DNA of 23,413 nucleotides from Candidatus Gastranaerophilales bacterium (GTDB lineage Bacteria; Cyanobacteriota; Vampirovibrionia; Gastranaerophilales; Gastranaerophilaceae). The DNA lies in NCBI GenBank assembly GCA_944326655.1, contig CALVEX010000159.1, positions 1-23,413 of the forward strand, read 5' to 3'. The notes beneath the pieces are model-generated. The model saw nothing but the letters and a program-made list of their open reading frames with translations, was not told the origin of the DNA and ran no database searches. The translations under genes were made by a program, and so were the position numbers. How positions within the stretch are numbered: position 1 is the first letter of the stretch; each line of letters starts with the position of its first letter. This document shows, piece by piece, positions 113 through 23,413 of this stretch.

Positions 113-3100
113 TTATTTTAACTGATATAAAGTACATGTCTTTGTAAATTTATCTTTATTTGTCCAGCCGCCGTACAGATCCATATAAATTTCATCACAA
201 TCTATATCGCCGAGAAAAGAAACTTGTCTTATTTCTTGTTGTAAATCAGAAATTGGAACATCATTATAAGACCCGCTCATATAAACCGGAGTATTTTCAA
301 CACCGGTAATTTCTTGAGAAACTTTTGCCGCATAATCAGCCATCGCAGATCTAACCTGTACTCCTGTCGCATTTGAAGGTTTATATTTGTTATTAATTTC
401 TATATTATCAATTATAAAAGCAGGTTTTCCATTGTCATCTTTGATAAAATAACACAGAGCATTTCCTATAGTTTTGCCGGAAGTATTATCAACAAGCTCT
501 ATCATATTATAGGCAGTATCCATCACAAAGTGAGGCATTGCAGATCCATTTCCGCCTCCCATACCTATACAACAGGTCGAGTAATTTCCCTGGAAAATAT
601 CTTTTTGCGGATTTCTGTCCCACATTTTTATTGTCAAATCAAGTTTTCTTTCGGATTTTCCTTCTTGTACTGACGAAATATCATCTAATCTTTGATTAAG
701 ATGCTCTAAAATAGTAAGTGTATTTCGAGGTGTCTGGGCTCTTTTAGGATCGGGATTTGCGGCATTTCCCTGTGCGCGTTTCCATACCTGAGCAAGCTGT
801 CCCTGTTCAGAAGTATCTGATAACATTTCAATAAGTTCTTTTAATTTATTTTTATTAGATAAATATTCTTTAGGTATAATAAACTCATCTCCTTTAATGA
901 ATTTAGGAAATTGTTTTTTCAAAAATCCTTTAACAGGAGTTTGCATTAACATATTTATATCTTCCGATACCTGAGCTGCTATTTGTTCTATATGTTCCGC
1001 ATTTTTATCTTTTGATACAAAATGAATTTCATGTTCTTTTGAGGGGTGTAACCATTTTTCATAATTTAAACCTGATGTCTCAAACATATTACGTGTGTTT
1101 TCATTTGCTATGCCATATATATTAGATGTATTGTGGATAAATTGATTAAAATCAGGTTCTAAAGAACCGGCTTTCATGATATCATTGAAAGATAAATCAT
1201 TGCCTGAATTTATTTCTTTTGAAAGCAAATGAATATAATTCATATCCCAAGACAATAATTTATCTTTGGGAATAGATGCGATTTGAGTATCAGTCAAACC
1301 TGAATTTTTCATTATTTGTTGGCATAAATCTGCATTCAACTGCCCTACATCAACTTTTCCCTGATCTATCATAGATTGTATGCCATCAAATGACATATTG
1401 TTTGCTTTATATGCAGTGATTAAATCTATAAATTCAATTTTTTGTGTAGGCATAAACGGTTTGTTGTCTGTATTGCAGGATTCCGACAGATTTTTTAACA
1501 AAGACATTTCATCCGGGGAAAAATCGCGTAAAATATCTATATACTCATCTGCATCATCAAATCTCATTCTCAATAAATGATTTACTGCTTCTTTGTCAAA
1601 AATTTCAGAAGCTGCCATTAAACAGCAATAATTACTATCAACAAATTCTTCTACTTCATCTCTTGCAAGTTCCGGGGTTTCAAATTCGCCATTGACATAC
1701 CATTCAGGATTTTTTAGCATTTTTTGTTTTAGAGCCTTTACCTTTGAATCCAGTTCTACTAAATCCTTATTTTTTAGCATTTTTAAAACATTATCATTAC
1801 GCGTCCAACAAATATCATCAATAAGAGGTTGAATACGCTCATTCGGGAAATCTGGATTGCGGCATAATTCTCTTACAATGTCTATAATATCCTTGCCTTT
1901 ATTTATGTGGCGCAATATACCTTCTATGTGTTCTTTCGGGAAATCTGGATTGTTGCACAATTCTCTTGCTAACTCTATATTGTCTTTATTTGTGCAACCC
2001 AATAATATACCTTCTATGTGTTCATTCGGGAAATCTGGATTGTTGCATAATTCTCTTGCAAGATTTATATTGTCTTTATTTGTGTAAGCCAATATACCTC
2101 TTATTTGCTTTTTCGGGAAATCTGGATTGTTGCACAATTCTCTTGCAAGGTCAATAATATCCTTGTCTTCATATATGTCGAACATTATACCTTTTATGTC
2201 CTCTTTCGGGAAGTCAGGATTGTTACACATTTTTCTTGCAATGTCTATATTATCTTTATCTGTGAATAACAATATACCACGTATGCGCTCTTTCGAGAAA
2301 TCGCCATTGTACATATCTTTTACAAGATCACGACGCTGATATGCATAATCCATATTATTTTTATCTGAGTAGAATAATATATCGCGCATGTATTCATTTG
2401 GAAAATCCGGATCATTGTATAATTCTCTTGCAAACTCTATGTTATCTTTATTTATGCAACCCAATATATCTTTTATTTGCTTTTTCGGAAAATCCGGATT
2501 GTTACACATTTTTCTTGCAATGTCTATAACATCCTTATCTCTACCTGCTAATAACAATATATCTTTTATTTGCTTTTTCGGGAAATCTGGATTGTTACAC
2601 ATTTCTCTTGCAAACTCTATATTATCCTTATGTGTGTAACCCAATATACCTTTTATGTGTTCATTCGGGAAATCTGGATTGTTACAAATTTCTCTTGCAA
2701 ACTCTATGTTATCCTTATGTGTGCAACCCAATATACCTTTTATGTGTTCTTTCGGGAAATCTGGATTGTTGCACAATTCTCTTGCAAGATCTATATTACC
2801 CTTATTTGTGAAGTCCAAAATATTATTAGCATACTCTCCGCCAATTCCTCTAGCCTTAAGTGTTTCAGCAAGCTCATCTTTCATCTTTGCAAATGTTTCA
2901 TCGTCTATCTCGATTTTTGCTGTTTCCGGTGCAGAAAGCTGTGCATGCTCGGGCACGTCTAATTCTTTGCCCTGCCGCGTAATAGGTGTCCCTTCATTCA
3001 TATCCGTTTTTATTTGTTCTCGTATAACTTCCTGTGTTTCCTGAGTTCTTCCCTGTGAAGCACCTGAAGATGTTTCCAATGATTGTTGCACTCTATGATT

Positions 3101-4978
3101 TTCTTCCGATTGTTTAGCAAAGATATTTGCCTGCGCTTGCTGAGGCGTTTCAGGATGGAAGGTCAGAGCTTCGGGAGCTCCTTCCACTTTGTAGCCCTTT
3201 GTTCCAAGTAACAATACGCTCAGTGCAAGTTCATTATCATTCTTTGCTGTTACTATTACTTCTCCGTTTCTAGTTAAGGTATAGGTCCCGTTTTCTTGTT
3301 TTTCTACATTTACGTTATTTAGTTTTGCACCCTTATGTATTGCAGAACCTGCAAACATCATTCCGTAGTTCATAAGTCCGTTTTGTGACAGGGATTCTTG
3401 TATTGTCATATCGCTTGTTAATCTGTCGAATATAACATCTGCTGTTGTTTCTGTCCCTGTTCCGATGATTTTGGGGATTATACTTTTAAATATTTGAGGA
3501 TTTTTTGACAGGATTTTTGCTACGCTGTCTCCTACAGGGCCTGAGACATATGCACCGAAGGCTCCGTACATCATGCCGTTTTTCAATTCTTCCCAGGCTT
3601 CTTGACCGGTTTGTTCTGTTATTCCTTTTTTGCTTGTTGCATCGCTTACTATTGTCACTGCAGGGTTAAATGCTGCAGTTGCTGTAGTTGCTATGCCTTT
3701 TACAGCGGCATTACTTACCATGGCACCTGCCTTTGTACCGAATTTTGCACTTGCTAGCTGCATTGCTTTGGAACCCAAGTTTTGCATGGCTGTTGAGCCC
3801 ATGGCAAAGTATGATGCTGCTATTGTTGTACCAATTTCGATTACGGCAGCCTGCGTCTTCATGTTAGAAATATATTCATTAATTATTTCTTCCGAGTTAT
3901 AATTTCCCATTGCCTGCTTGTATGCAGACTTGTATTCTTGCTCCAGTGTATTTTTGTCTAAAGAATGTATCTGAGAGTCATATTCATTTTTAGCATCTGT
4001 GAGGAAGCTTTTTAGTTCCTGAACGAATTTCTTATCATCATTTTGAGCAATACTATTTAATTGGGATACGTATTGTTGAGCAAGCTCTCTGTTGTTTCCG
4101 ACATGGGGTAAGATGTGGAGCATTGCTGCTTTTCTGACATTAACGGGGGCTGCATTATCTATGTTCGATAGAGTATTTGAAATATTATCTGATAGGTTTT
4201 GATATGCGTTTAGAGTTTGGAGGTTTGTATCTGCTTTCTGAAGATTTTGAAATGCCTGTTCATTATAATCTATACCATAGAGTTCTTTGAAATTTTTATT
4301 AAATTCTTCTGGATTGTTTGTCGTATTCTTAAGTCTGATAATCCCGCCTATTTCATTGCTGATTGCCTCTCCATTTTCCCAGACTGTAACAAAGTCGTTA
4401 CGGCCTGTTATTTTATCCCAGGTATAGTTGCCTATTGATTGAAGCCCCTGTTGAACGGCATCAAATGAAACTTTACCTATGCCGTTGTAGTAGTTTGTAA
4501 GGTTATCTCCGGCATTCCCTGCTTGTTGGAATAATTTATCAGCAGCGAAAGCTCTTGTTTGTTGGGATTGTTGTTCTAATAATTGTTCCTGGGAGAGATT
4601 TTGTTTTTGTTCAGTTTTTGAAGCGGAAATGGGAGATGGCTGTTGTTGAGTTTGATGATTATTTTGTTCTAGTGTGAGAGTAATATCATCCAGATATGTG
4701 CCGTTGTCATAAGTATCATATTTCCCAAAACTGAATCCATTGCCAAAGATAGAAGTAGAATTGAATCTGGAGTTGTATGAGTCCTGCCCTTCTTTTGTGC
4801 CAAAAGCCCATTCTTCGAATTCATCGCGGGACAGAATTCCGTTTGCAAGCATTTGTGCGGCAACATCATATTTTGACATATCTTTTTTTGATATATATTC
4901 ATTGCTTCTGAGTTGATCCAGGTGTGCCATAGCATAATCATCAATTTTTTTAGATATTGAATCGTTTGTTCCTGACAT
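113..4978 (-). CDS. Giant (1621 aa) multi-domain protein. The N-terminal region is Q/N-rich and polar. A Gly/Ala-rich hydrophobic segment follows (aa ~380-520). The central part has about 11-12 tandem 30-aa repeats (NIEFARELCNNPDFPKEHIKGILGCTHKD). The C-terminal ~250 aa domain is Cys-containing (QGNYSTCCIGMGGGNGSAMPHF...). No signal peptide. Candidate secreted effector, toxin or adhesin-like protein.
   Basis: Single uninterrupted 4866-nt ORF on the minus strand. ATG at 4978 is preceded by GAAGGAAG, with in-frame stops upstream. Plus-strand ORFs inside it are short, repeat-derived artefacts. Repeat periodicity is visible at both protein and nucleotide level. Confidence 0.8.
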   Translation of the reverse strand: MSGTNDSISKKIDDYAMAHLDQLRSNEYISKKDMSKYDVAAQMLANGILSRDEFEEWAFGTKEGQDSYNSRFNSTSIFGNGFSFGKYDTYDNGTYLDDITLTLEQNNHQTQQQPSPISASKTEQKQNLSQEQLLEQQSQQTRAFAADKLFQQAGNAGDNLTNYYNGIGKVSFDAVQQGLQSIGNYTWDKITGRNDFVTVWENGEAISNEIGGIIRLKNTTNNPEEFNKNFKELYGIDYNEQAFQNLQKADTNLQTLNAYQNLSDNISNTLSNIDNAAPVNVRKAAMLHILPHVGNNRELAQQYVSQLNSIAQNDDKKFVQELKSFLTDAKNEYDSQIHSLDKNTLEQEYKSAYKQAMGNYNSEEIINEYISNMKTQAAVIEIGTTIAASYFAMGSTAMQNLGSKAMQLASAKFGTKAGAMVSNAAVKGIATTATAAFNPAVTIVSDATSKKGITEQTGQEAWEELKNGMMYGAFGAYVSGPVGDSVAKILSKNPQIFKSIIPKIIGTGTETTADVIFDRLTSDMTIQESLSQNGLMNYGMMFAGSAIHKGAKLNNVNVEKQENGTYTLTRNGEVIVTAKNDNELALSVLLLGTKGYKVEGAPEALTFHPETPQQAQANIFAKQSEENHRVQQSLETSSGASQGRTQETQEVIREQIKTDMNEGTPITRQGKELDVPEHAQLSAPETAKIEIDDETFAKMKDELAETLKARGIGGEYANNILDFTNKGNIDLARELCNNPDFPKEHIKGILGCTHKDNIEFAREICNNPDFPNEHIKGILGYTHKDNIEFAREMCNNPDFPKKQIKDILLLAGRDKDVIDIARKMCNNPDFPKKQIKDILGCINKDNIEFARELYNDPDFPNEYMRDILFYSDKNNMDYAYQRRDLVKDMYNGDFSKERIRGILLFTDKDNIDIARKMCNNPDFPKEDIKGIMFDIYEDKDIIDLARELCNNPDFPKKQIRGILAYTNKDNINLARELCNNPDFPNEHIEGILLGCTNKDNIELARELCNNPDFPKEHIEGILRHINKGKDIIDIVRELCRNPDFPNERIQPLIDDICWTRNDNVLKMLKNKDLVELDSKVKALKQKMLKNPEWYVNGEFETPELARDEVEEFVDSNYCCLMAASEIFDKEAVNHLLRMRFDDADEYIDILRDFSPDEMSLLKNLSESCNTDNKPFMPTQKIEFIDLITAYKANNMSFDGIQSMIDQGKVDVGQLNADLCQQIMKNSGLTDTQIASIPKDKLLSWDMNYIHLLSKEINSGNDLSFNDIMKAGSLEPDFNQFIHNTSNIYGIANENTRNMFETSGLNYEKWLHPSKEHEIHFVSKDKNAEHIEQIAAQVSEDINMLMQTPVKGFLKKQFPKFIKGDEFIIPKEYLSNKNKLKELIEMLSDTSEQGQLAQVWKRAQGNAANPDPKRAQTPRNTLTILEHLNQRLDDISSVQEGKSERKLDLTIKMWDRNPQKDIFQGNYSTCCIGMGGGNGSAMPHFVMDTAYNMIELVDNTSGKTIGNALCYFIKDDNGKPAFIIDNIEINNKYKPSNATGVQVRSAMADYAAKVSQEITGVENTPVYMSGSYNDVPISDLQQEIRQVSFLGDIDCDEIYMDLYGGWTNKDKFTKTCTLYQLK
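1840..2840 (-). repeat. Tandem ~90-bp (30-codon) repeat array inside the giant CDS, about 11-12 units with high unit-to-unit nucleotide identity.
   Basis: The string ttcgggaaatctggattgtt[g/a]cacaattctcttgcaa recurs at ~1843, 1936, 2026, 2113, 2206, 2293, 2400, 2485, 2576, 2666 and 2753 (period 87-93 bp). The translated unit is ...ARELCNNPDFPKEHIKGILGCTHKDNIEF... Confidence 0.85.
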
Positions 4979-5222: not shown

Positions 5223-5233
5223 GGGGGGGGGGG
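5223..5233. repeat. Homopolymeric G11 tract (C11 on the sense strand of the giant gene), ~245 nt upstream of its ATG. Candidate slipped-strand phase-variation tract.
   Basis: Printed sequence ttgag + 11 g + atttc. The sense-strand context AAGAGGA..TTTTGTT..ATGG..(23 nt)..C11 resembles the uORF/poly-C module of the pilin cassettes (AAGAGGAG TTTTGTT ATGG ..28 nt.. C10). Confidence 0.6.
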
Positions 5234-9941: not shown

Positions 9942-11177
9942 TTAAAAAGGGTAATCATCTTTTATCTGCCATCCGTCACGCATAATTTTTGCAGCGCATG
10001 TGTATCCGCCGGATACTGCTTTAGCGTTGCAAGCCCAGGATGCTGTACTATTAATAGTGTTATCAGGCCAATCGTATCCGTAAGGTTTTAACATTTTGTC
10101 AGCCAGAATAAAGAAAAACAAATCCTTTCCTGCAACATTTGGTCCTTTATCAGAACCATTTATATCAATAAAAAATGCTGCATTATTTATTGATGTTGAA
10201 TAGAGTCCAATACAGACACCGTCTACGGTTTTAAAAGATGCAGTCCCCGGATTTATGGGGGAGGAGAGCCAGACTCCTGTCAACCATTCATACTGTGTAT
10301 TTTCATAAAACATTTTCCCGTTATAACACATATTTTCTGCATAGTCTCCGGGCGGATATGTTTTATCAATTTTAAATTCCGGTGCCAAATAATTATTAAC
10401 TATTTTTTCGGGGGAATTCCAATCCTGCCAGTTTTCCATTTCTCCATGTTTAATTTCTGCCATTATAATGGCCTGATTTGTCAGTGTGTAAGCTCGTTTT
10501 AATTTTGTAACAGTTTCATCCTTTTGATGTTTTGTAATTAATGTTGGTAAAGTCATCGCCGCAACCACGCCGATTATGCCGAGGGTGATTAGGACTTCTG
10601 CGAGTGTAAATGCGGCTCGACGTTGACCGTTCAGCAGGACTACGCGCGTAGCGCCATCTGCGATGGTAAAGGTAGCAAGTTTTTTCTTAAGTGAAGAAGT
10701 TAATAAGTCAATAGGTGAATAAGTTCGTTTCAGGGAATTGATATAGTCCCCTCTCCCCGGCGAATTGACCTTCGCGCGGGAGAGTACTCTTATACTCTTC
10801 CCTCTCCCCCTGCGGGAGAGGGTTAGGGTGAGGGGTGTTTGTTTGAAACCCATCCTAACCTTCCCTAATAAGGGAAGGAATTCTATGTCCCCTCCCTTGA
10901 GGGGAGGGGAATACAAGGGGAGGGTGATGCTCTTAAGTGAATAAGTTAATAGGTCAATAAGTGAATAAGTTCTTATCGGCAGCGTACCGCTGCAAAAGAT
11001 TACCGAGGAAATTTCACTATTATGCGATTGCGACGGTCGTTTCACACGCTGGCAATGACACGTATCTTGTGAGCTTTGCTCACAGATACCGGCATACCTT
11101 ATTACCCTCCTATCTTCCGATCTTCCATTAATGGCCTGCCCTCCTGCCTTCTTGAACTCTTGCCTTCTGTTTGTCAC
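9942..11177 (-). CDS. Prepilin-type (type IV pilin-like / pseudopilin-like) protein, paralog 1. The class-III signal motif AAFTLAEVLITLGIIGVVAAMTLP lies at codon ~189 of an open frame that starts at GTG 11177. The C-terminal ~220 aa globular part has the DINGSDKGPNVAGKDLFFF motif. The true 5' end is unresolved (see findings).
   Basis: Canonical FTLxE + hydrophobic helix. There is no in-frame ATG/GTG/TTG within 60 codons upstream of the motif. The frame stays open for ~188 codons back to a GTG whose UG overlaps the UGA stop of an RBS-equipped upstream ORF. Paralogous to 14013..15209. Confidence 0.6.
   Translation of the reverse strand: MTNRRQEFKKAGGQAINGRSEDRRVIRYAGICEQSSQDTCHCQRVKRPSQSHNSEISSVIFCSGTLPIRTYSLIDLLTYSLKSITLPLYSPPLKGGDIEFLPLLGKVRMGFKQTPLTLTLSRRGRGKSIRVLSRAKVNSPGRGDYINSLKRTYSPIDLLTSSLKKKLATFTIADGATRVVLLNGQRRAAFTLAEVLITLGIIGVVAAMTLPTLITKHQKDETVTKLKRAYTLTNQAIIMAEIKHGEMENWQDWNSPEKIVNNYLAPEFKIDKTYPPGDYAENMCYNGKMFYENTQYEWLTGVWLSSPINPGTASFKTVDGVCIGLYSTSINNAAFFIDINGSDKGPNVAGKDLFFFILADKMLKPYGYDWPDNTINSTASWACNAKAVSGGYTCAAKIMRDGWQIKDDYPF
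10688..11170 (-). repeat. Conserved hairpin-rich upstream cassette of pilin paralog 1 (shared with paralog 2 and partly with 23001..23330). It contains four polypyrimidine-loop-polypurine hairpins (10749-10785, 10800-10822, 10859-10878, 10889-10908) bracketed by a ~45-bp direct repeat (10690-10735 and 10925-10972, cttaagtgaataagttaataggtcaataagtgaataagttc). It also contains the palindrome TGTGAGCTTTGCTCACA (11068-11084).
   Basis: Direct sequence comparison with 14750-15205 (modules are nearly identical, with mosaic indels). Confidence 0.75.
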
Positions 11178-11221
11178 GCTTTCGGGGGGGGGGCGATTCT
11201 CAGCTTCTTATCTTTAACCAT
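11174..11221 (-). CDS. Upstream ORF of pilin paralog 1 encoding MVKDKKLRIAPPPKA (15 codons). It contains the C10 tract (encoding APPP). Its UGA stop overlaps the GUG start of the long pilin frame (gcGUGAca).
   Basis: AAGAGGAG-N7-ATG on the minus strand. The 10-G tract is confirmed independently by the plus-strand track ORF 11076..11297 (..CHAFGGGAILSF..). One extra C fuses this ATG in frame with the 9942..11177 frame. Confidence 0.5.
   Translation of the reverse strand: MVKDKKLRIAPPPKA
11184..11193. repeat. Homopolymeric G10 (C10 on the sense strand) inside the upstream ORF of pilin paralog 1. Candidate phase-variation tract.
   Basis: ttc + 10 g + cgatt, read directly from the sequence. Confidence 0.8.
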
Positions 11222-11255
11222 AACAAAACTCCTCTTAATTTCCAATAACATTTTT

Positions 11256-11284
11256 ATTATTTATGATTTTTCAGGTTTTGTCAA
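11256..11284 (-). promoter_or_regulatory. Sigma70-like promoter for pilin paralog 1 (TTGACA-N17-AATAAT), ~55 nt upstream of the upstream-ORF ATG.
   Basis: Minus strand reads tatTGACAaaacctgaaaaatcataAATAATaaaaatg. A perfect -35 hexamer. Confidence 0.45.
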
Positions 11285-11375
11285 TACGAATAATTAATTA
11301 AAAATTAATTTCAATGACTTTTGAAAAAATAACGTTAAAATGAAAATATAAGTTATTTGAAATGGAGTTTTAATT

Positions 11376-14012
11376 ATGCCTAATTTTGAAAAGTTTACTA
11401 ATTATTCTCAGGAACTTTTGAATTCTGCAGGTGCAATTATGCAAGAACACAGAAATTCCGAGATGCAGCCCGAGCATATAATGCTTGCTATGATTAAGGA
11501 CAGCGGTGCGATAAAAGATTATTTGACCGAGTTAAAACTTTTAAATCAAGGTTTTATAGATAAAATTGTTTCCGTTGTTAATTCTTTCCCGACAATATCC
11601 GGGCCGCCTTCCGGGCAGGTATTTTTGTCTACCCAGACTTACAGACTGTTAGATTTGGCAGGTCAGCAGGCAGAAGAATTTAAGGATGAATTTATAAGCG
11701 CTGAATCAATCCTGCTTGCTATGACACGATTAGATAACAGCCCTATACAACTATTGTTGAAAAATTACAATGTTGATTCAAATAAAGTTTTAAATGTAAT
11801 GAAAAAAATAAGAGGTAATAAGAAAGTGGATAATAAAAATGCTGAAGAAAATATGAAAGCACTTGAAAAATATTCAACTGATTTAACAGCTCTTGCAAGA
11901 AAGGGAAAATTAGACCCTGTAATAGGCAGAGATGAAGAAGTCAGAAGAATTATTCAGGTATTAAACAGAAGAACAAAAAACAATCCTGTTTTGATAGGTG
12001 AGCCGGGAGTCGGTAAAACTGCAATAGTTGAAGGACTTGCCCAGCGTATTGTGCGCGGTGATGTTCCTGAAAGTTTAAAAGATGTTAAACTTGTTTCTCT
12101 TGATATGGGAGCACTTGTTGCAGGGGCTAAGTTCAGAGGCGAGTTTGAAGAACGTTTAAAAGCAGTATTGAAAGAGGTTGAAGATTCAAACGGCGAAATT
12201 GTAATGTTTATTGATGAGTTGCATACAGTTGTTGGTGCAGGTGCAACAGAAGGTTCAATGGATGCAGGAAACCTCTTGAAACCAATGCTTGCCCGTGGTG
12301 TTTTGAGAACAATCGGTGCTACAACAATTAATGAATATCGTAAATATATAGAAAAAGACCCTGCTTTGGAAAGACGTTTCCAGCCTGTTATGGTTGGTGA
12401 GCCCTCTGTGGAGGATACAATTTCTATCCTCAGAGGTTTAAAAGAAAAATATGAAGTTCACCATGGTATAAGAATTTTAGACAGTGCATTAATTGCTGCT
12501 GCAAAATTGTCTGACAGATATATAACTGACAGATTTCTCCCAGATAAAGCAATTGATTTGATTGATGAGGCCGCATCATCTTTGCGTATCGAAATAGATT
12601 CTATGCCCGAAGAAATTGATAAAATGATGCGTCAGAAAATCCAGCTTGAAATTGAAAGAGAAGCCCTTAAAAAAGAGGTTGACCCCTCCCCGAAATCTGA
12701 GATTTCGACCCTCCCTCAAGGGGAGGGTACTACAGAAACCAAAATTGCAGACCTTACTAAACATATAACAGATTTAGAGGGCAAAATTTCAAAATTAAAA
12801 GCTCAATGGGAACAAGAAAAGGCTTCAATTACAGGTGAAGCAGGTATTAAAGAAGAAATCGAAAAAGTTAAAAATAAAATTGAAGAGGCAGAACGGAATA
12901 CCGATTTGCAGACAGCTGCTGAACTTAAATATGGCAGACTGCTTGAGCTTGAAAAGCAATTAAAGGCTGTGCAGAATAAAGAAAAAACAGATAATAAATT
13001 GCTTAAAGAAGAAATAGACGATGAAGACATTGCAAATGTTGTAAGTAAATGGACGGGAATTCCGGTTAATAAACTCGTAGAAAGTGAAAAGCAAAAACTT
13101 CTTAATATGGAAGAAATATTGCATAAGCGTCTTGTCGGTCAGGAAGAAGCTGTTGATACGGTTGCAGATGCTATCCGTCGTGCGCGTTCAGGCCTAAAAG
13201 ACCCGAAACGCCCGATAGGTACCTTCTTATTCTTAGGGCCTACAGGGGTTGGAAAAACAGAGCTTGCAAAATCTCTTGCGGAATTTATGTTTAACGATGA
13301 AGATGCGCTTATACGTATTGATATGTCCGAGTATATGGAAAAACATAACGTTTCTAGATTAGTCGGTGCTCCTCCGGGATATGTCGGCTATGATGAAGGC
13401 GGTCAGTTGACTGAGGCTGTCAGACGTAAACCTTATTCGGTTGTTCTTTTTGATGAAATTGAAAAGGCTCATCCGGATGTATTCAATATTATGCTTCAAA
13501 TCTTTGATGATGGGCGATTAACTGATTCAAAGGGAAGAACTGTTGATTTTAAAAATACATTAATCATTATGACATCAAACATCGGAAGCGACATAATCCT
13601 TGAAAATACTTTAAATTCTCTGGGTTCAAAGCAGAATTTTGAGGATACTAAAGAAAAAGTTCTTGAAGTTTTGAGAAGCAGGTTTAAACCCGAATTTTTA
13701 AACAGAATAGATGAAACGATATTCTTTAGAGCCTTGAATATGCAGGATTTAACAAAAATTGTCGATATTCAAATGGAGTATTTAAGAAAATTGTTAAAAG
13801 ATCAGGAAATCGACTTTGAAATAACTGATGATGCCAAAGAATTTCTTGCAACCCGCGGCTTTAACCCTGTTTACGGTGCAAGACCATTAAAACGTGTCAT
13901 AAGACAGTTAATTGAAAACCCGTTATCAAAACAAATTTTGGCCCAGAAATTCCTGCGCGGCGACAAGGTTATCATTGATGTTGATAACGATGAAATTGTT
14001 TTCAAAAAATAA
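11376..14012 (+). CDS. clpB: Chaperone ClpB (Hsp100/AAA+ disaggregase), 878 aa, carrying an in-frame ~16-aa insertion in the M-domain.
   Basis: Both AAA+ modules ([37 protein letters not shown]), the M-domain coiled coil and the C-terminal [10 protein letters not shown] motif. Collinear with E. coli ClpB except for the extra [17 protein letters not shown] segment. Confidence 0.95.
12681..12729 (+). repeat. In-frame palindromic hairpin element inside clpB. It combines cgaaatc-tga-gatttcg with accctccc-tcaag-gggagggt, and belongs to the same CCCTCCC-loop-GGGGAGGG family found in the pilin cassettes.
   Basis: Sequence gacccctccccgaaatctgagatttcgaccctccctcaaggggagggtac. Its reverse complement (gtaccctcccc TTGA gggagggtc) is near-identical to the cassette hairpin gtcccctccc TTGA ggggagggg at 10889-10908 and 14766-14785. 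Confidence 0.7.
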
Positions 14013-15209
14013 TTACGGATTAATACATTGCCAGTAAGTTTTTGATGTATCTGTTTCACATGTGTTTAAAATTGCCCATTTTGCACATGTGAAACCCTGG
14101 TAATGTTCTTTCTCAGATGTAAAACAGCCCCCAAAGCGTGTATATGGTACTACGTTGTTATTTTTGTCTATGTTGAATGAAAATAAATCGTGTCCCAGAC
14201 GGTTAGGTCCTTTGGCCGGGCCGTTGATATCAATGTGATACCCTCTCGCTCCCCAAGGACTCATAAATATAAGAATACCACTATTAGTTAAAATAGATTT
14301 TTGAGTAAGTGAGTCCGCGTCTATATGTGCATATGTCCCTTTAACAAAAGAGTCATAACTTTTTTCCCTGCGCCCTGTGCAGTCTAAGTAATATTTTGTG
14401 CACAGTTGAGCATTTGGTATATACTTTATAAGTTTGTCTAAATGATTTGAATATGCTGTTCTCATATCAGATTCAGAATTTAAATCTTCATACAGCATCG
14501 GATAATCATTCTGCATAAGCAGATGAGCATTTTGAATTAATGAATAAGCTTTTTTGAACTGTGTTTCCAAAACATGCCGTTTGTAATTTGTAATAACCAC
14601 AGGTAAAGTCATCGCCGCAACCACTCCGATAATTCCGAGGGTGATGAGGACCTCTGCCAATGTAAACGCGGCCTGACGTTGACCATTCGGCATGGCTACG
14701 CGCGTAGCGCACTCAGCCAAAGTGAATGCAGGTATCAACTGAACGCGTTCCATGTCCCCTCCCTTGAGGGGAGGGGAATTCAAGGGGAGGGTGATGCTCT
14801 TAAGTGAATAAGTTAATAAGTCAATAGGTGAATAAGTTCGTTTCGAGAAGGTGTTCTGCCTCTCTTTGGAAAACTCTTGTTCAAATATTTTAAAGTTTAA
14901 TAAATATTGTGGCAGAGGGCGAAAAAGAGGGTTGGGGTGAGGTTCTATTATGTTCTGCGATTGCGACGGTCGTTCCACTCCCTCGCAATGACATGTATTT
15001 TGTGAGCTTTGCTCACCGATTTCAGCATACCCTCCTACCTTCCTATCTTCCAATCTTCCTGAATCAGCCCTCTCTCTAACTATCTCCCGAGGAGAGAAAA
15101 CGCGTTTCAACTTCCTTATACAGGAAAGGAAGTTATTTTTACGCGGGCTCTGCCCGCCGATAATAGCCTGACCTCCTGCCTTCTTGCCCTCCTGACTTCT
15201 TTTTGTCAC
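14013..15209 (-). CDS. Prepilin-type (type IV pilin-like) protein, paralog 2. MPNGQRQAAFTLAEVLITLGIIGVVAAMTLP lies at codon 173, with an in-frame ATG at 14693 just before the motif. The C-terminal part has the DINGPAKGPNRLGHDLFSF motif. The frame is open back to a GTG near 15209 that is coupled to an upstream ORF, as in paralog 1.
   Basis: Same architecture as 9942..11177. The stop codon abuts the clpB stop (convergent, zero spacer). A partial duplicate FTLAE motif (IPAFTLAECATRVAMPNGQRQAAFTLAEV) is present. Confidence 0.65.
   Translation of the reverse strand: MTKRSQEGKKAGGQAIIGGQSPRKNNFLSCIRKLKRVFSPREIVRERADSGRLEDRKVGGYAEIGEQSSQNTCHCEGVERPSQSQNIIEPHPNPLFRPLPQYLLNFKIFEQEFSKERQNTFSKRTYSPIDLLTYSLKSITLPLNSPPLKGGDMERVQLIPAFTLAECATRVAMPNGQRQAAFTLAEVLITLGIIGVVAAMTLPVVITNYKRHVLETQFKKAYSLIQNAHLLMQNDYPMLYEDLNSESDMRTAYSNHLDKLIKYIPNAQLCTKYYLDCTGRREKSYDSFVKGTYAHIDADSLTQKSILTNSGILIFMSPWGARGYHIDINGPAKGPNRLGHDLFSFNIDKNNNVVPYTRFGGCFTSEKEHYQGFTCAKWAILNTCETDTSKTYWQCINP
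14750..15205 (-). repeat. Conserved hairpin-rich upstream cassette of pilin paralog 2. It contains hairpin 14766-14785 (cccctccc-ttga-ggggaggg), hairpins 15083-15095 and 15111-15132, the gaataagt module 14797-14850 and the palindrome TGTGAGCTTTGCTCAC (15001-15016).
   Basis: Module-by-module similarity to 10688-11170. An additional ~140-nt segment is absent from paralog 1. Confidence 0.75.
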
Positions 15210-15253
15210 GCTTTCGGGGGGGGGGCGATTCTCAGCTTCTTATCTTTTTTCAT
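15206..15253 (-). CDS. Upstream ORF of pilin paralog 2 (MKKDKKLRIAPPPKA if the tract is C10). It has the same RBS, poly-C tract and UGA/GUG overlap as paralog 1.
   Basis: AAAAGGAG-N7-ATG on the minus strand. The 3' coordinate depends on the tract length (9 as I read the printed line; 10 implied by the frame of the supplied ORF 14013..15209). Confidence 0.4.
   Translation of the reverse strand: MKKDKKLRIAPPPKA
15217..15225. repeat. Homopolymeric G tract (9-10 nt) inside the upstream ORF of pilin paralog 2.
   Basis: I read gctttc + 9 g + cgatt. The adjacent block reads cctgcccttcttg. The ORF-track translation MTKRSQEGKKAGG requires cctgccttcttg instead, so the G run is most probably 10 and one of my two run counts is off by one. 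Confidence 0.6.
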
Positions 15254-15287
15254 AACAAAACTCCTTTTAATTTCCAATAACATATTT

Positions 15288-15317
15288 ATTATGAGCCAAT
15301 TTAATAGTATTTGTCAA
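15288..15317 (-). promoter_or_regulatory. Sigma70-like promoter for pilin paralog 2 (TTGACA-N18-CATAAT), positionally equivalent to the promoter of paralog 1.
   Basis: Minus strand reads ggaTTGACAaatactattaaattggctCATAATaaatatg. Confidence 0.45.
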
Positions 15318-20889: not shown

Positions 20890-21075
20890 GACCGTCACCC
20901 TAAATTTGTTTTAGGGTATGAATTTTTTTTGATTTCTATCGCAGTTTACAAAAGAACCGTAATACTCTCATTCCGAATGTCGGATTGACCTTCGTGTTTC
21001 GGAATCTCTATATTGTTAGACCCTGAAACAAGTTCAGGGTGACATTCAAGATGTTGTTAGTGTAAACTGCGATAT
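20890..21075 (+). repeat. Structured intergenic repeat element. Hairpins accctaaa-tttgtt-tttagggt (20896-20917) and accctgaa-acaa-ttcagggt (21020-21040). A 10-bp inverted repeat gcagtttaca/tgtaaactgc (20941-50 and 21061-70) encloses a nested palindrome attccgaa...ttcggaat and a sigma70-like promoter TTGACC-N18-TATATT (20985-21014) oriented toward the gamma-CA gene.
   Basis: Read directly. A 45-nt core (gtaatacNNtcattcNNNNNtcggattgNNcttNgtgtttcNgaa) recurs at 23003-23050. Shorter pieces recur upstream of the giant gene (5083-5110, minus strand), at 10761-10775 and at 19494-19506. Confidence 0.55.
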
Positions 21076-23000: not shown

Positions 23001-23330
23001 ATGTGTAATACAGTCATTCTGTACCTCGGATTGTGCTTTGTGTTTCAGAAGTTAGTTGCAAGAAGTTCGGAAGGCAGGAAGGCAAGAGGTCAAGCCGTTA
23101 TCGGCGGGCAAGGCCCTCGTAATGACAATTACAAGTTTAACTTTTGCAGCGGTACGCTGCCTATACGAACTTCTCGTCCTAACGTCTTTACGTCTTATCG
23201 TCTGAAACAATACGAACCTCACCCCAGCCTCTCCTTGTAAAGGAGAGGGGACGATATCAGCTCGCCGAAACGAACTTATTCACCTAAACTCGTTTCACTC
23301 TTCACTCATCACAGTTCACTTAATATTATT
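23001..23330 (+). repeat. Third, degraded copy of the pilin upstream cassette (plus-strand orientation). It lacks the promoter, upstream ORF and poly-C module, has a frame-breaking stop, and retains one hairpin (cctctcctt-gtaa-aaggagagg, 23228-23249) and a diverged gaataagt module. A new gene starts at ~23405 (AGAGGG..ATGAAAA).
   Basis: Same-frame peptide similarity (VARSSEGRKARGQAVIGGQ...FCSGTLPIRT against paralogs 1 and 2). Nucleotide similarity to 11120-11170 and 15120-15200, including synonymous third-position differences. Confidence 0.6.
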
Positions 23331-23413
23331 AGTAACCGTAATTAATCCTTTATGAGTGAAAAATTTTTTTTATATGGTACAATTTTTTCAAAAAGAGGGT
23401 TATGTGATGAAAA

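Follow-up and report, generated by a model that had tools for sequence, protein, structure and literature searches.

The window analysed here is a stretch of 23,413 nucleotides (nt) from an uncultured gut bacterium of the Candidatus Gastranaerophilales (contig CALVEX010000159.1, positions 1 to 23,413), and it carries two paralogous pilin-like genes on its minus strand in which the prepilin-type signal is preceded by an exceptionally long open leader. As delimited by the open reading frame (ORF), paralog 1 extends over 9942-11177 and encodes 411 amino acids (aa), with the motif AAFTLAEVLITLGIIGVVAAMTLP at residue 186, and paralog 2 extends over 14013-15209 and encodes 398 aa, with the same motif at residue 178. 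A run of ten C residues close to the likely start codon of each gene puts that start out of frame with the pilin, and we propose that the two genes are phase-variable.

Pilin-like domains and the open frame upstream of them

The mature domains, taken from FTLAEV to the stop codon, occupy 9942..10610 in paralog 1 and 14013..14666 in paralog 2, both on the minus strand. Both proteins matched the N-terminal methylation motif PF07963, with 22.9 and 23.8 bits, respectively, against a cut-off of 21.2. Paralog 2 additionally scored 19.4 bits with TIGR02532 (cut-off 16.3), and paralog 1 scored 25.4 bits with DUF6613 (PF20318; threshold 24.3). The DUF6613 profile gave no match on paralog 2, which leaves paralog 1 as the sole member by Pfam score. 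The cleavage and methylation motif [G/A]↓F-x-x-x-E with ~20 hydrophobic residues is present in AAFTLAEVLITLGIIGVVAAMTLP, and AlphaFold modelled the mature part as a 53-residue N-terminal helix plus a beta-sheet, consistent with a pilin fold; a Foldseek search with this predicted fold returned no match. What both genes lack is the short basic leader (~5-30 aa) that usually follows the start codon of a protein with a class III signal peptide.

Upstream of AAFTLAEVLITLG, the pilin frame stays open for 199 codons in paralog 1 and 191 codons in paralog 2, if the count runs from the F codon (10610; 14666) to the first in-frame stop upstream, or for 189 and 181 codons if it runs from the first GTG. 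An earlier note on this DNA, made from the letters alone, had put the open stretch at 172-188 codons, which is close. These leaders span 10611..11207 and 14667..15239 (minus strand), and that of paralog 1 consists of hairpin-forming repeat modules. Over the same DNA, 12-15 stops were counted in the other two forward frames and 6-16 in the three reverse frames, and none of 20,000 mononucleotide shuffles of the leader was stop-free, with ~9.8 stops expected. The open frame is therefore not due to chance, and a chance ORF was ruled out by these two counts.

The two leaders differ by a 99-nt block unique to paralog 2, a 189-nt block unique to paralog 1 and the replacement of one stretch, for which the net difference is 66 nt, all three being multiples of three. 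Large insertions and deletions between the paralogs had been described before, with a block of ~140 nt said to be confined to paralog 2, a size that proved to be approximate. The codons immediately before the motif read ...YSLKKK(x)AAFTLAEV and include no start codon; the nearest ATG, GTG or TTG is not found within 81 codons of the motif in paralog 1, nor within 104 and 78 codons in two related loci, L001 and L064+. By net charge and hydrophobicity, the leader in the pilin frame was not distinguishable from the other frames.

A probable start cassette and an out-of-frame C tract

Each window paralog has, where its open frame begins on the 5' side, a conserved cassette of promoter-like site, strong ribosome-binding site and ATG. 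In paralog 1, the promoter-like site (11256..11284, minus strand) reads TTGACA-17 nt-AATAAT and agrees with 11 of 12 consensus positions. It was the top-scoring site across 10500-11400, where no minus-strand site was found near the pilin motif, and its sequence is kept in L064(-) and L001. The corresponding site of paralog 2 (15281..15317, minus strand; TTGACA ... CATAAT) was recognized from the sequence and by homology to paralog 1. Downstream of the promoter-like site lies the ribosome-binding site AAGAGGAG, which a 7-nt spacer separates from the likely true start of paralog 1, an ATG at 11221-11219 (together 11219..11236, minus strand). Paralog 2 has AAAAGGAG, again a 7-nt spacer, and an ATG at 15253-15251 (together 15251..15268, minus strand). 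The two genes thus probably start further upstream than the GTG codons at 11177 and 15209, at which the ORFs as delimited begin.

In both paralogs nine codons (M-V/K-KDKKLRIA) separate the ATG from a homopolymer of ten C residues (G10 on the plus strand), located at 11184..11193 in paralog 1 and 15216..15225 in paralog 2, which we propose to be the frame switch of each gene. As assembled, the ATG frame encodes MxKDKKLRIAPPPKA and ends after 15 codons in both cases, giving MVKDKKLRIAPPPKA plus a stop at 11174..11221 and MKKDKKLRIAPPPKA plus a stop at 15206..15253 (both on the minus strand). When other tract lengths were simulated for paralog 1, C8 and C11 yielded products of 425 and 426 aa with the pilin motif at residue 204 and 205, respectively, and C9, C10 and C12 yielded 15-31 aa. 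For paralog 2, C11 yielded 413 aa; lengths of 9, 10 and 12 gave products of 15-38 aa across both paralogs. In the in-frame configuration, the motif lies 204 (paralog 1) or 196 (paralog 2) residues past the ATG. Since with C10 the ATG is not in frame with the pilin in either window copy, both are OFF as assembled. Neither the upstream start nor the out-of-frame C10 tract had been noticed before.

The TGA of the 15-codon frame overlaps the GTG of the long frame (GTGA) at 11174-11177 and 15206-15209, a layout classically associated with translational coupling. This overlap is confined to the two window genes and is not conserved in the other loci compared.

Tract lengths and alleles at related loci

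Related pilin-like genes with DNA (L001/2, L003 and L064-L076) came from several metagenome assemblies plus one genome. The species-representative genome collection contributed a single useful match, L003, itself from Candidatus Gastranaerophilales; a metagenome scan with AAAGAYAAGAAGCTGAGAAT matched groEL-like genes and a gut gene that is abundant but unrelated, so that L004-L063 are irrelevant here. The pilin frame was open for 104-233 codons upstream of the motif in L001, L003, both genes of L064, L065, L068, L070, L073 and L075, with the other frames rich in stops.

A homopolymer of 8-12 G or C residues was found at 14 loci, 9-23 codons past a start codon with a ribosome-binding site. Simulation at these 14 loci showed that a full-length prepilin results from a single length class at each locus and that the other lengths stop after 13-62 aa. 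Nine of the tracts are 10 nt long and out of frame, all in need of the identical correction, and two are 12 nt long and out of frame, both in L076, where they need opposite corrections. Complete in-frame genes were found with an 8-nt tract in L068 (=L069; 305 aa with a 94-aa leader) and with an 11-nt tract in L075 (402 aa with a 163-aa leader). In L001 (=L002) the tract is degenerate (CCGAACCCCCTCCCC), and the same start cassette supplies an ATG in frame with the pilin across 157 codons. Full in-frame versions that begin at a ribosome-binding site and ATG are therefore available from L001, L068 and L075. Four loci had been sampled two or three times each, and their consensus tract lengths were identical between samples.

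A further protein, P0147 (MKKDKKLRIAPPPESV...; start MKKDKKLRIAPPPESVT, with APPPE), was called from its ATG. It comes from another assembly, belongs to the 90% identity cluster of paralog 2 and has 413 aa, so that it equals the simulated C11 product of paralog 2 in length and start; its C11 is deduced from the protein sequence. Set against the C10 tract of the window, P0147 indicates that the paralog 2 locus has been found both ON and OFF. Three more proteins, P0002 (MFKDKKLRIIPPPERV...), P0099 and P0081, have no traceable DNA.

Most of the homologs from elsewhere carry leaders of the ordinary kind (MKNKAFTLAEV, MRKTVSFTLAEV). Whether relatives start at the motif or carry the extension had been suggested as a check on the long leader, and short-leader homologs do exist (MKNKAFTLAEV, MKKGFTLAEV), yet the genome that holds L075 has both kinds, a conventional gene (MKKGFTLAEV) and the long-leader G11 gene, and short-leader homologs consequently do not decide the question. 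The long leader of L075 is not made of the window's modules. L076 in turn carries two pilin-like genes with GTG starts, G12 tracts (1884-1895; 10011-10022) and leaders of 21-42 aa, and is syntenic with L064 and L001, whose corresponding genes have long, module-laden leaders. Short leaders in L076 and a leader in L075 that is not built from the window's modules, both with tracts, indicate that the tract-in-leader design is older and wider than the giant repeat-laden leaders.

Over ~128 kb of these loci, G/C runs with a length of 8 nt or more number 14, and 13 of them lie at pilin starts.

The leaders are mosaics of in-frame palindromic modules

The leaders proved to be mosaics of short modules that recur, in differing order, in several genes and genomes. 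Of 59 blastn matches between leaders, 58 join modules that lie at different positions and keep the same codon phase (4,336 nt versus 54 nt). Mismatches fell almost evenly on the three codon positions (168, 172 and 219, each of ~1,418, in comparisons that are not independent), which points to selection on frame and stop avoidance and not on the peptide. To judge from these sequence comparisons, the leader is almost free of constraint at the amino-acid level. Synonymous third-position changes had been taken as a hint of coding constraint, a weak one in light of these counts, and the near-absence of amino-acid constraint had gone unremarked; what constraint there is amounts essentially to avoiding stops and keeping phase.

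The leader RNA of paralog 1 is rich in hairpins (fold z-score -5.8), and an Rfam search over the whole window found one tRNA only, with the leaders matching none of the known RNA families. AlphaFold gave a confidence score (pLDDT) of 31-59 over residues 1-185, as compared with 82-98 in the mature part, and the leader is accordingly predicted to be disordered. A folded or conserved leader domain was ruled out by the low pLDDT together with the codon-position mismatches. When 5.8 and 1.84 billion proteins were searched with the leaders alone, they yielded solely pilin-like proteins from this clade and a small number of short leader fragments, besides a repeat artefact, P0138. Leader modules on other protein families were thereby rejected, as these searches gave none beyond P0138 and the PdxJ chimera P0128. 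Both P0128 and P0141 carry leader modules and a divergent pilin-like N-terminus (AAYTLTEIVIVMLIISVIVAVT). The fusion partner is a PdxJ-like C-terminus in P0128 and a 720-aa protein in P0141; both may be chimeras, or artefacts of assembly or frameshift.

Directly upstream of the motif lies a 60-nt in-frame block, at 10614..10673 (minus strand) in paralog 1 and 14670-14729 in paralog 2. In paralog 1 its first codons form a degenerate copy (TFTIAD) of AFTLAE, and the palindrome GCTACGCGCGTAGT lies within the block. Encoding G/C-ATRVxxxNGQRR-A, the block occurs in five of ten loci compared, both window genes included, always in frame; it is flanked by an 18-nt direct repeat coding for AFTLAE and has the palindrome GCTACGCGCGTAGC inside. 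Either an insertion with target duplication or a tandem duplication may have given rise to it.

One hairpin module, ending in ...CCCCTCAAGGGAGGGGAC, is followed by ATG in paralog 2 (14745-14763) and L064(-), giving MERVQLIPAFTLAE, and by ATA in paralog 1 (10878-10896). In paralog 2 this creates GGGAGGGGAC-ATG at 14763-14745, where the Shine-Dalgarno-like GGGAGGGG is sequestered in the hairpin stem. A structure-gated internal start is thus possible in paralog 2 and L064(-).

The palindromic modules are dispersed over many loci, and some of them occur at intergenic sites as well, in the window and in L068. At 20937..21074 (no strand assigned), the window has an intergenic composite resembling a miniature inverted-repeat transposable element (MITE), with terminal inverted repeats TATCGCAGTTTACA and TGTAAACTGCGATA that enclose hairpin modules found in the pilin leaders, and the same composite lies downstream of the L068 pilin gene (L068 3920-4085). 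Terminal inverted repeats were observed solely on this intergenic composite, the leader copies not having been scanned for them systematically. A short form of the TATCGCAGTTTACA/TGTAAACTGCGATA pair is located upstream of the L003 promoter.

On the plus strand at 23040..23330, the window holds a decayed third leader copy, with the same modules in the same frame and no pilin after it. The earlier note had placed this copy at 23001-23330 and held that it had lost the frame; the copy is real, and the loss was overstated, since the module frame is kept apart from one in-frame TAA. Such a stop is what relaxed selection predicts for a copy without a pilin.

A model of phase variation and its alternatives

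We consider that these are phase-variable (contingency-type) pilin-like genes of gut Candidatus Gastranaerophilales (Melainabacteria), in which a cleavable leader has become loaded with in-frame selfish hairpins, and we put the probability of this reading at roughly 0.68. Transcription would start from a sigma-70-like promoter ~600 nt upstream of the pilin motif, and translation at the ribosome-binding site and ATG (11221; 15253), after which the ribosome would cross the 10-nt C tract nine codons past the ATG. With a tract of 8 or 11, it would read through the leader of 190-200 codons into the class III signal (A↓FTLAEV...), and prepilin peptidase would remove the entire leader at A↓F on the cytoplasmic side. 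With C10, the ATG frame would end at 15 codons and the gene would be OFF; slipped-strand gain of one C during replication would turn it ON. Because the leader would be discarded, almost any stop-free, frame-keeping sequence should be tolerated in it, and this tolerance would have allowed palindromic modules of the MITE or repetitive extragenic palindromic (REP) kind, probably of selfish origin, to fill it gradually in a single codon phase and to stack there. Translation of the leader should yield peptides such as TYSPIDLLTYSLK, AGGQAINGR and SITLPLYSPPLK, and the mature protein is predicted to begin with FTLAEVLITLGIIGVVAAMTLPTLITK.

The loci share with contingency loci elsewhere a homopolymer of at least 8 nt in the 5' coding region that sets the frame and occurs in differing lengths, ON and OFF. 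Silent cassettes of the pilS type were ruled out, since every copy comes with a promoter, a ribosome-binding site and an ATG of its own.

Several points weigh against this reading. The residue at position -1 to the cleavage site is Ala, in place of the usual Gly, and we know of no precedent for a prepilin leader of 100-240 aa. Domain profiles detected no prepilin peptidase in the 23-kb window; pilA-D and pilT are reported from a Gastranaerophilus genome (PMC5877343). Paralog 2 has possible internal starts, namely GGGAGGGGAC-ATG and an ATG at 9 codons from the motif, by which translation could avoid the long leader. In L067, a G11 tract is in phase at the tract itself, and a later phase break leads to a stop at codon 99. 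Furthermore, P0143, P0145 and P0146, which come from other assemblies and belong to the paralog 1 cluster (~90% identical), were called as 204 aa. They start at the internal Met of AAMTLP, which suggests that the upstream frame is probably broken there, and some paralog 1 alleles may be pseudogenes. Finally, the spread of tract lengths, with nine of 14 at exactly 10 nt and the same correction in each, is narrower than freely drifting tracts would give and so leaves room for programmed recoding.

In such recoding, a conserved 10-nt G/C slippage site would lead RNA polymerase to add one nucleotide, or the ribosome to shift by -1, and some part of each transcript pool would give the full prepilin with no change in the DNA. 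A uniform +1 nt or -1 frame correction, tract lengths that stay identical over two or three samples at four loci, and an ATG frame that always stops shortly past the tract are all in keeping with this idea. We nevertheless judge it unlikely, given the in-frame 8- and 11-nt alleles of L068 and L075, the in-frame paralog 2 allele P0147 and the two G12 loci of L076 that require opposite corrections: a fixed length, the same shift everywhere and a lack of in-frame alleles are not what the loci have. It also counts against recoding that efficient transcriptional slippage in bacteria is described for A/T runs and that G/C homopolymers are poor ribosomal slippery sites. One could further imagine the G/C run as a programmed slippage site that feeds a small, regulated fraction of ribosomes into the leader of >190 aa, with the stacked hairpins tuning that fraction, a scenario that we also hold to be rather doubtful. 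If true, programmed slippage would represent a kind of recoding undescribed for bacterial G/C homopolymers, and it would extend across a whole pilin gene family.

Alternatively, the leader may be a ~600-nt hairpin-rich 5' untranslated region, with initiation near the motif and the open frame as a by-product of element composition. Its strong RNA structure (z -5.8), the very weak amino-acid constraint and, in paralog 2 and L064(-), the ATG that follows GGGAGGGG inside a hairpin module and lies 29 or 9 codons from the motif would fit this view. It does not sit well with the 6-17 stops in each of the other five frames of the same DNA, with a module phase that is the same in 58 of 59 matches, with the lack of a start codon near the motif in paralog 1, L001, L064+, L068 and L070, where proximal initiation is not possible, with a distal ATG that is in frame in L001, L068 and L075, or with the stop in the pilin-less third copy, and we regard an untranslated leader as improbable. 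The earlier note had offered this reading and a pilin-like protein with a long, element-derived leader as its two alternatives. The latter is favoured, since the frame is open in every related locus examined, module phase is constant, many loci lack a near start and complete in-frame versions exist; the former explains less. Still less probable in our view is termination-reinitiation, by which ribosomes would restart at the GTGA overlaps (11177-11174 and 15209-15206) and the 411- and 398-aa ORFs would be made constitutively through translational coupling. L003, both genes of L064, L065, L070 and L073 have no such overlap, nor a start of the long frame near the end of the ATG frame, and as a general mechanism GTGA reinitiation was rejected because the overlap is not conserved. 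That the long-leader copies are silent or dying paralogs, their frame being a remnant, would agree with both window copies being out of frame with the ATG, with the three paralog 1 alleles called only from an internal Met and with the phase break of L067. Neutral decay would give ~10 stops per leader, however, and the mature domains are intact and conserved, with promoter, ribosome-binding site and ATG kept in each copy, so that we attach very little probability to decay.

Comparison with known systems

Closest to the proposed system are homopolymer-based contingency loci, among them the poly-G genes of Campylobacter jejuni. In Neisseria, homopolymeric-tract contingency loci (pilC, pglA, lgtA and others) have G/C runs of 9-20 inside the reading frame (PMC5953494, citing Jonsson et al., 1991). 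As in both genera, a G/C run near the 5' coding end sets the frame here, alleles differ in length with ON and OFF states, and the genes are pilus- or surface-related and present as many paralogs, each with its own switch. In contrast to them, it is the pilin-like subunits themselves that would be switched, as deduced from sequence, and the tract lies in a class III leader, 100-230 codons before the mature protein. Our literature search found no paper on phase variation in the host lineage, an uncultured non-photosynthetic relative of Cyanobacteria.

Type IVb prepilins and other class III signal peptides regarded as having 'long' leaders have ~15-30 aa. For an archaellin, a leader of 26 aa has been termed unusually long (PMC12448462). 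The proteins described here share with class III signal peptides a basic leader, the [G/A]↓F-x-x-x-E motif and a hydrophobic helix, together with a predicted pilin-like fold of helix plus sheet in the mature part. They differ from type IVb prepilins in a leader of 90-240 aa whose length is 5-10 times greater and whose sequence is mosaic, poorly conserved and predicted to be disordered, and in the Ala at -1.

Rickettsia palindromic elements (RPEs) and other MITEs are known to insert in frame into protein-coding genes (PMC10969869). The leader modules likewise belong to dispersed palindromic families whose copies within ORFs are in frame, stop-free and part of the predicted protein, with the same families occurring between genes. 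RPEs occur singly, are scattered in unrelated housekeeping genes and are retained in the mature protein, whereas here up to ~10 modules are stacked in one segment that would be cleaved off. The modules are also much shorter than RPEs (~150 bp), and the likeness lies in the repeats themselves.

Phase variation by homopolymers, class III signal peptides and palindromic repeats in frame with a gene have each been described; to our knowledge, their combination has not. If phase variation is the correct reading, class III signal peptides could exceed those described so far by an order of magnitude in length, which bears on how prepilin peptidase and membrane insertion handle a cytoplasmic extension of 100-240 residues. 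Uncultured gut Melainabacteria would then have many pilin-like surface genes, each switchable on its own, a contingency strategy so far known mainly from host-adapted pathogens, and this would suggest immune or phage pressure on commensals. The cleaved leader would offer a safe harbour for selfish palindromic DNA, under selection for frame and stop avoidance alone. Such a design would also explain the varied wrong N-termini that gene callers assign, and dozens of these genes would be mis-delimited in the genomes concerned.

Other features of the window

Behind the third leader copy, 23331-23413 comprises an AT-rich, promoter-like stretch with TGGTACAAT, followed by AAAGAGGG and an ATG at 23408, the beginning of a new gene that is cut by the window end.

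The sole long G/C run in these loci away from pilin starts is an intergenic G11 (plus strand; C11 on the minus strand) at window 5223-5233. It lies ~245 nt upstream of the ATG of a repeat-rich ORF of 1621 aa (113-4978, minus strand), for which it may act as a promoter-level or other phase switch. The ORF had no NCBIfam match. Within it, arrays of 87-nt (29-aa) direct repeats at 1837-2820 reach up to 9 copies with 60-100% identity, and its product looks like a repeat-rich surface protein.

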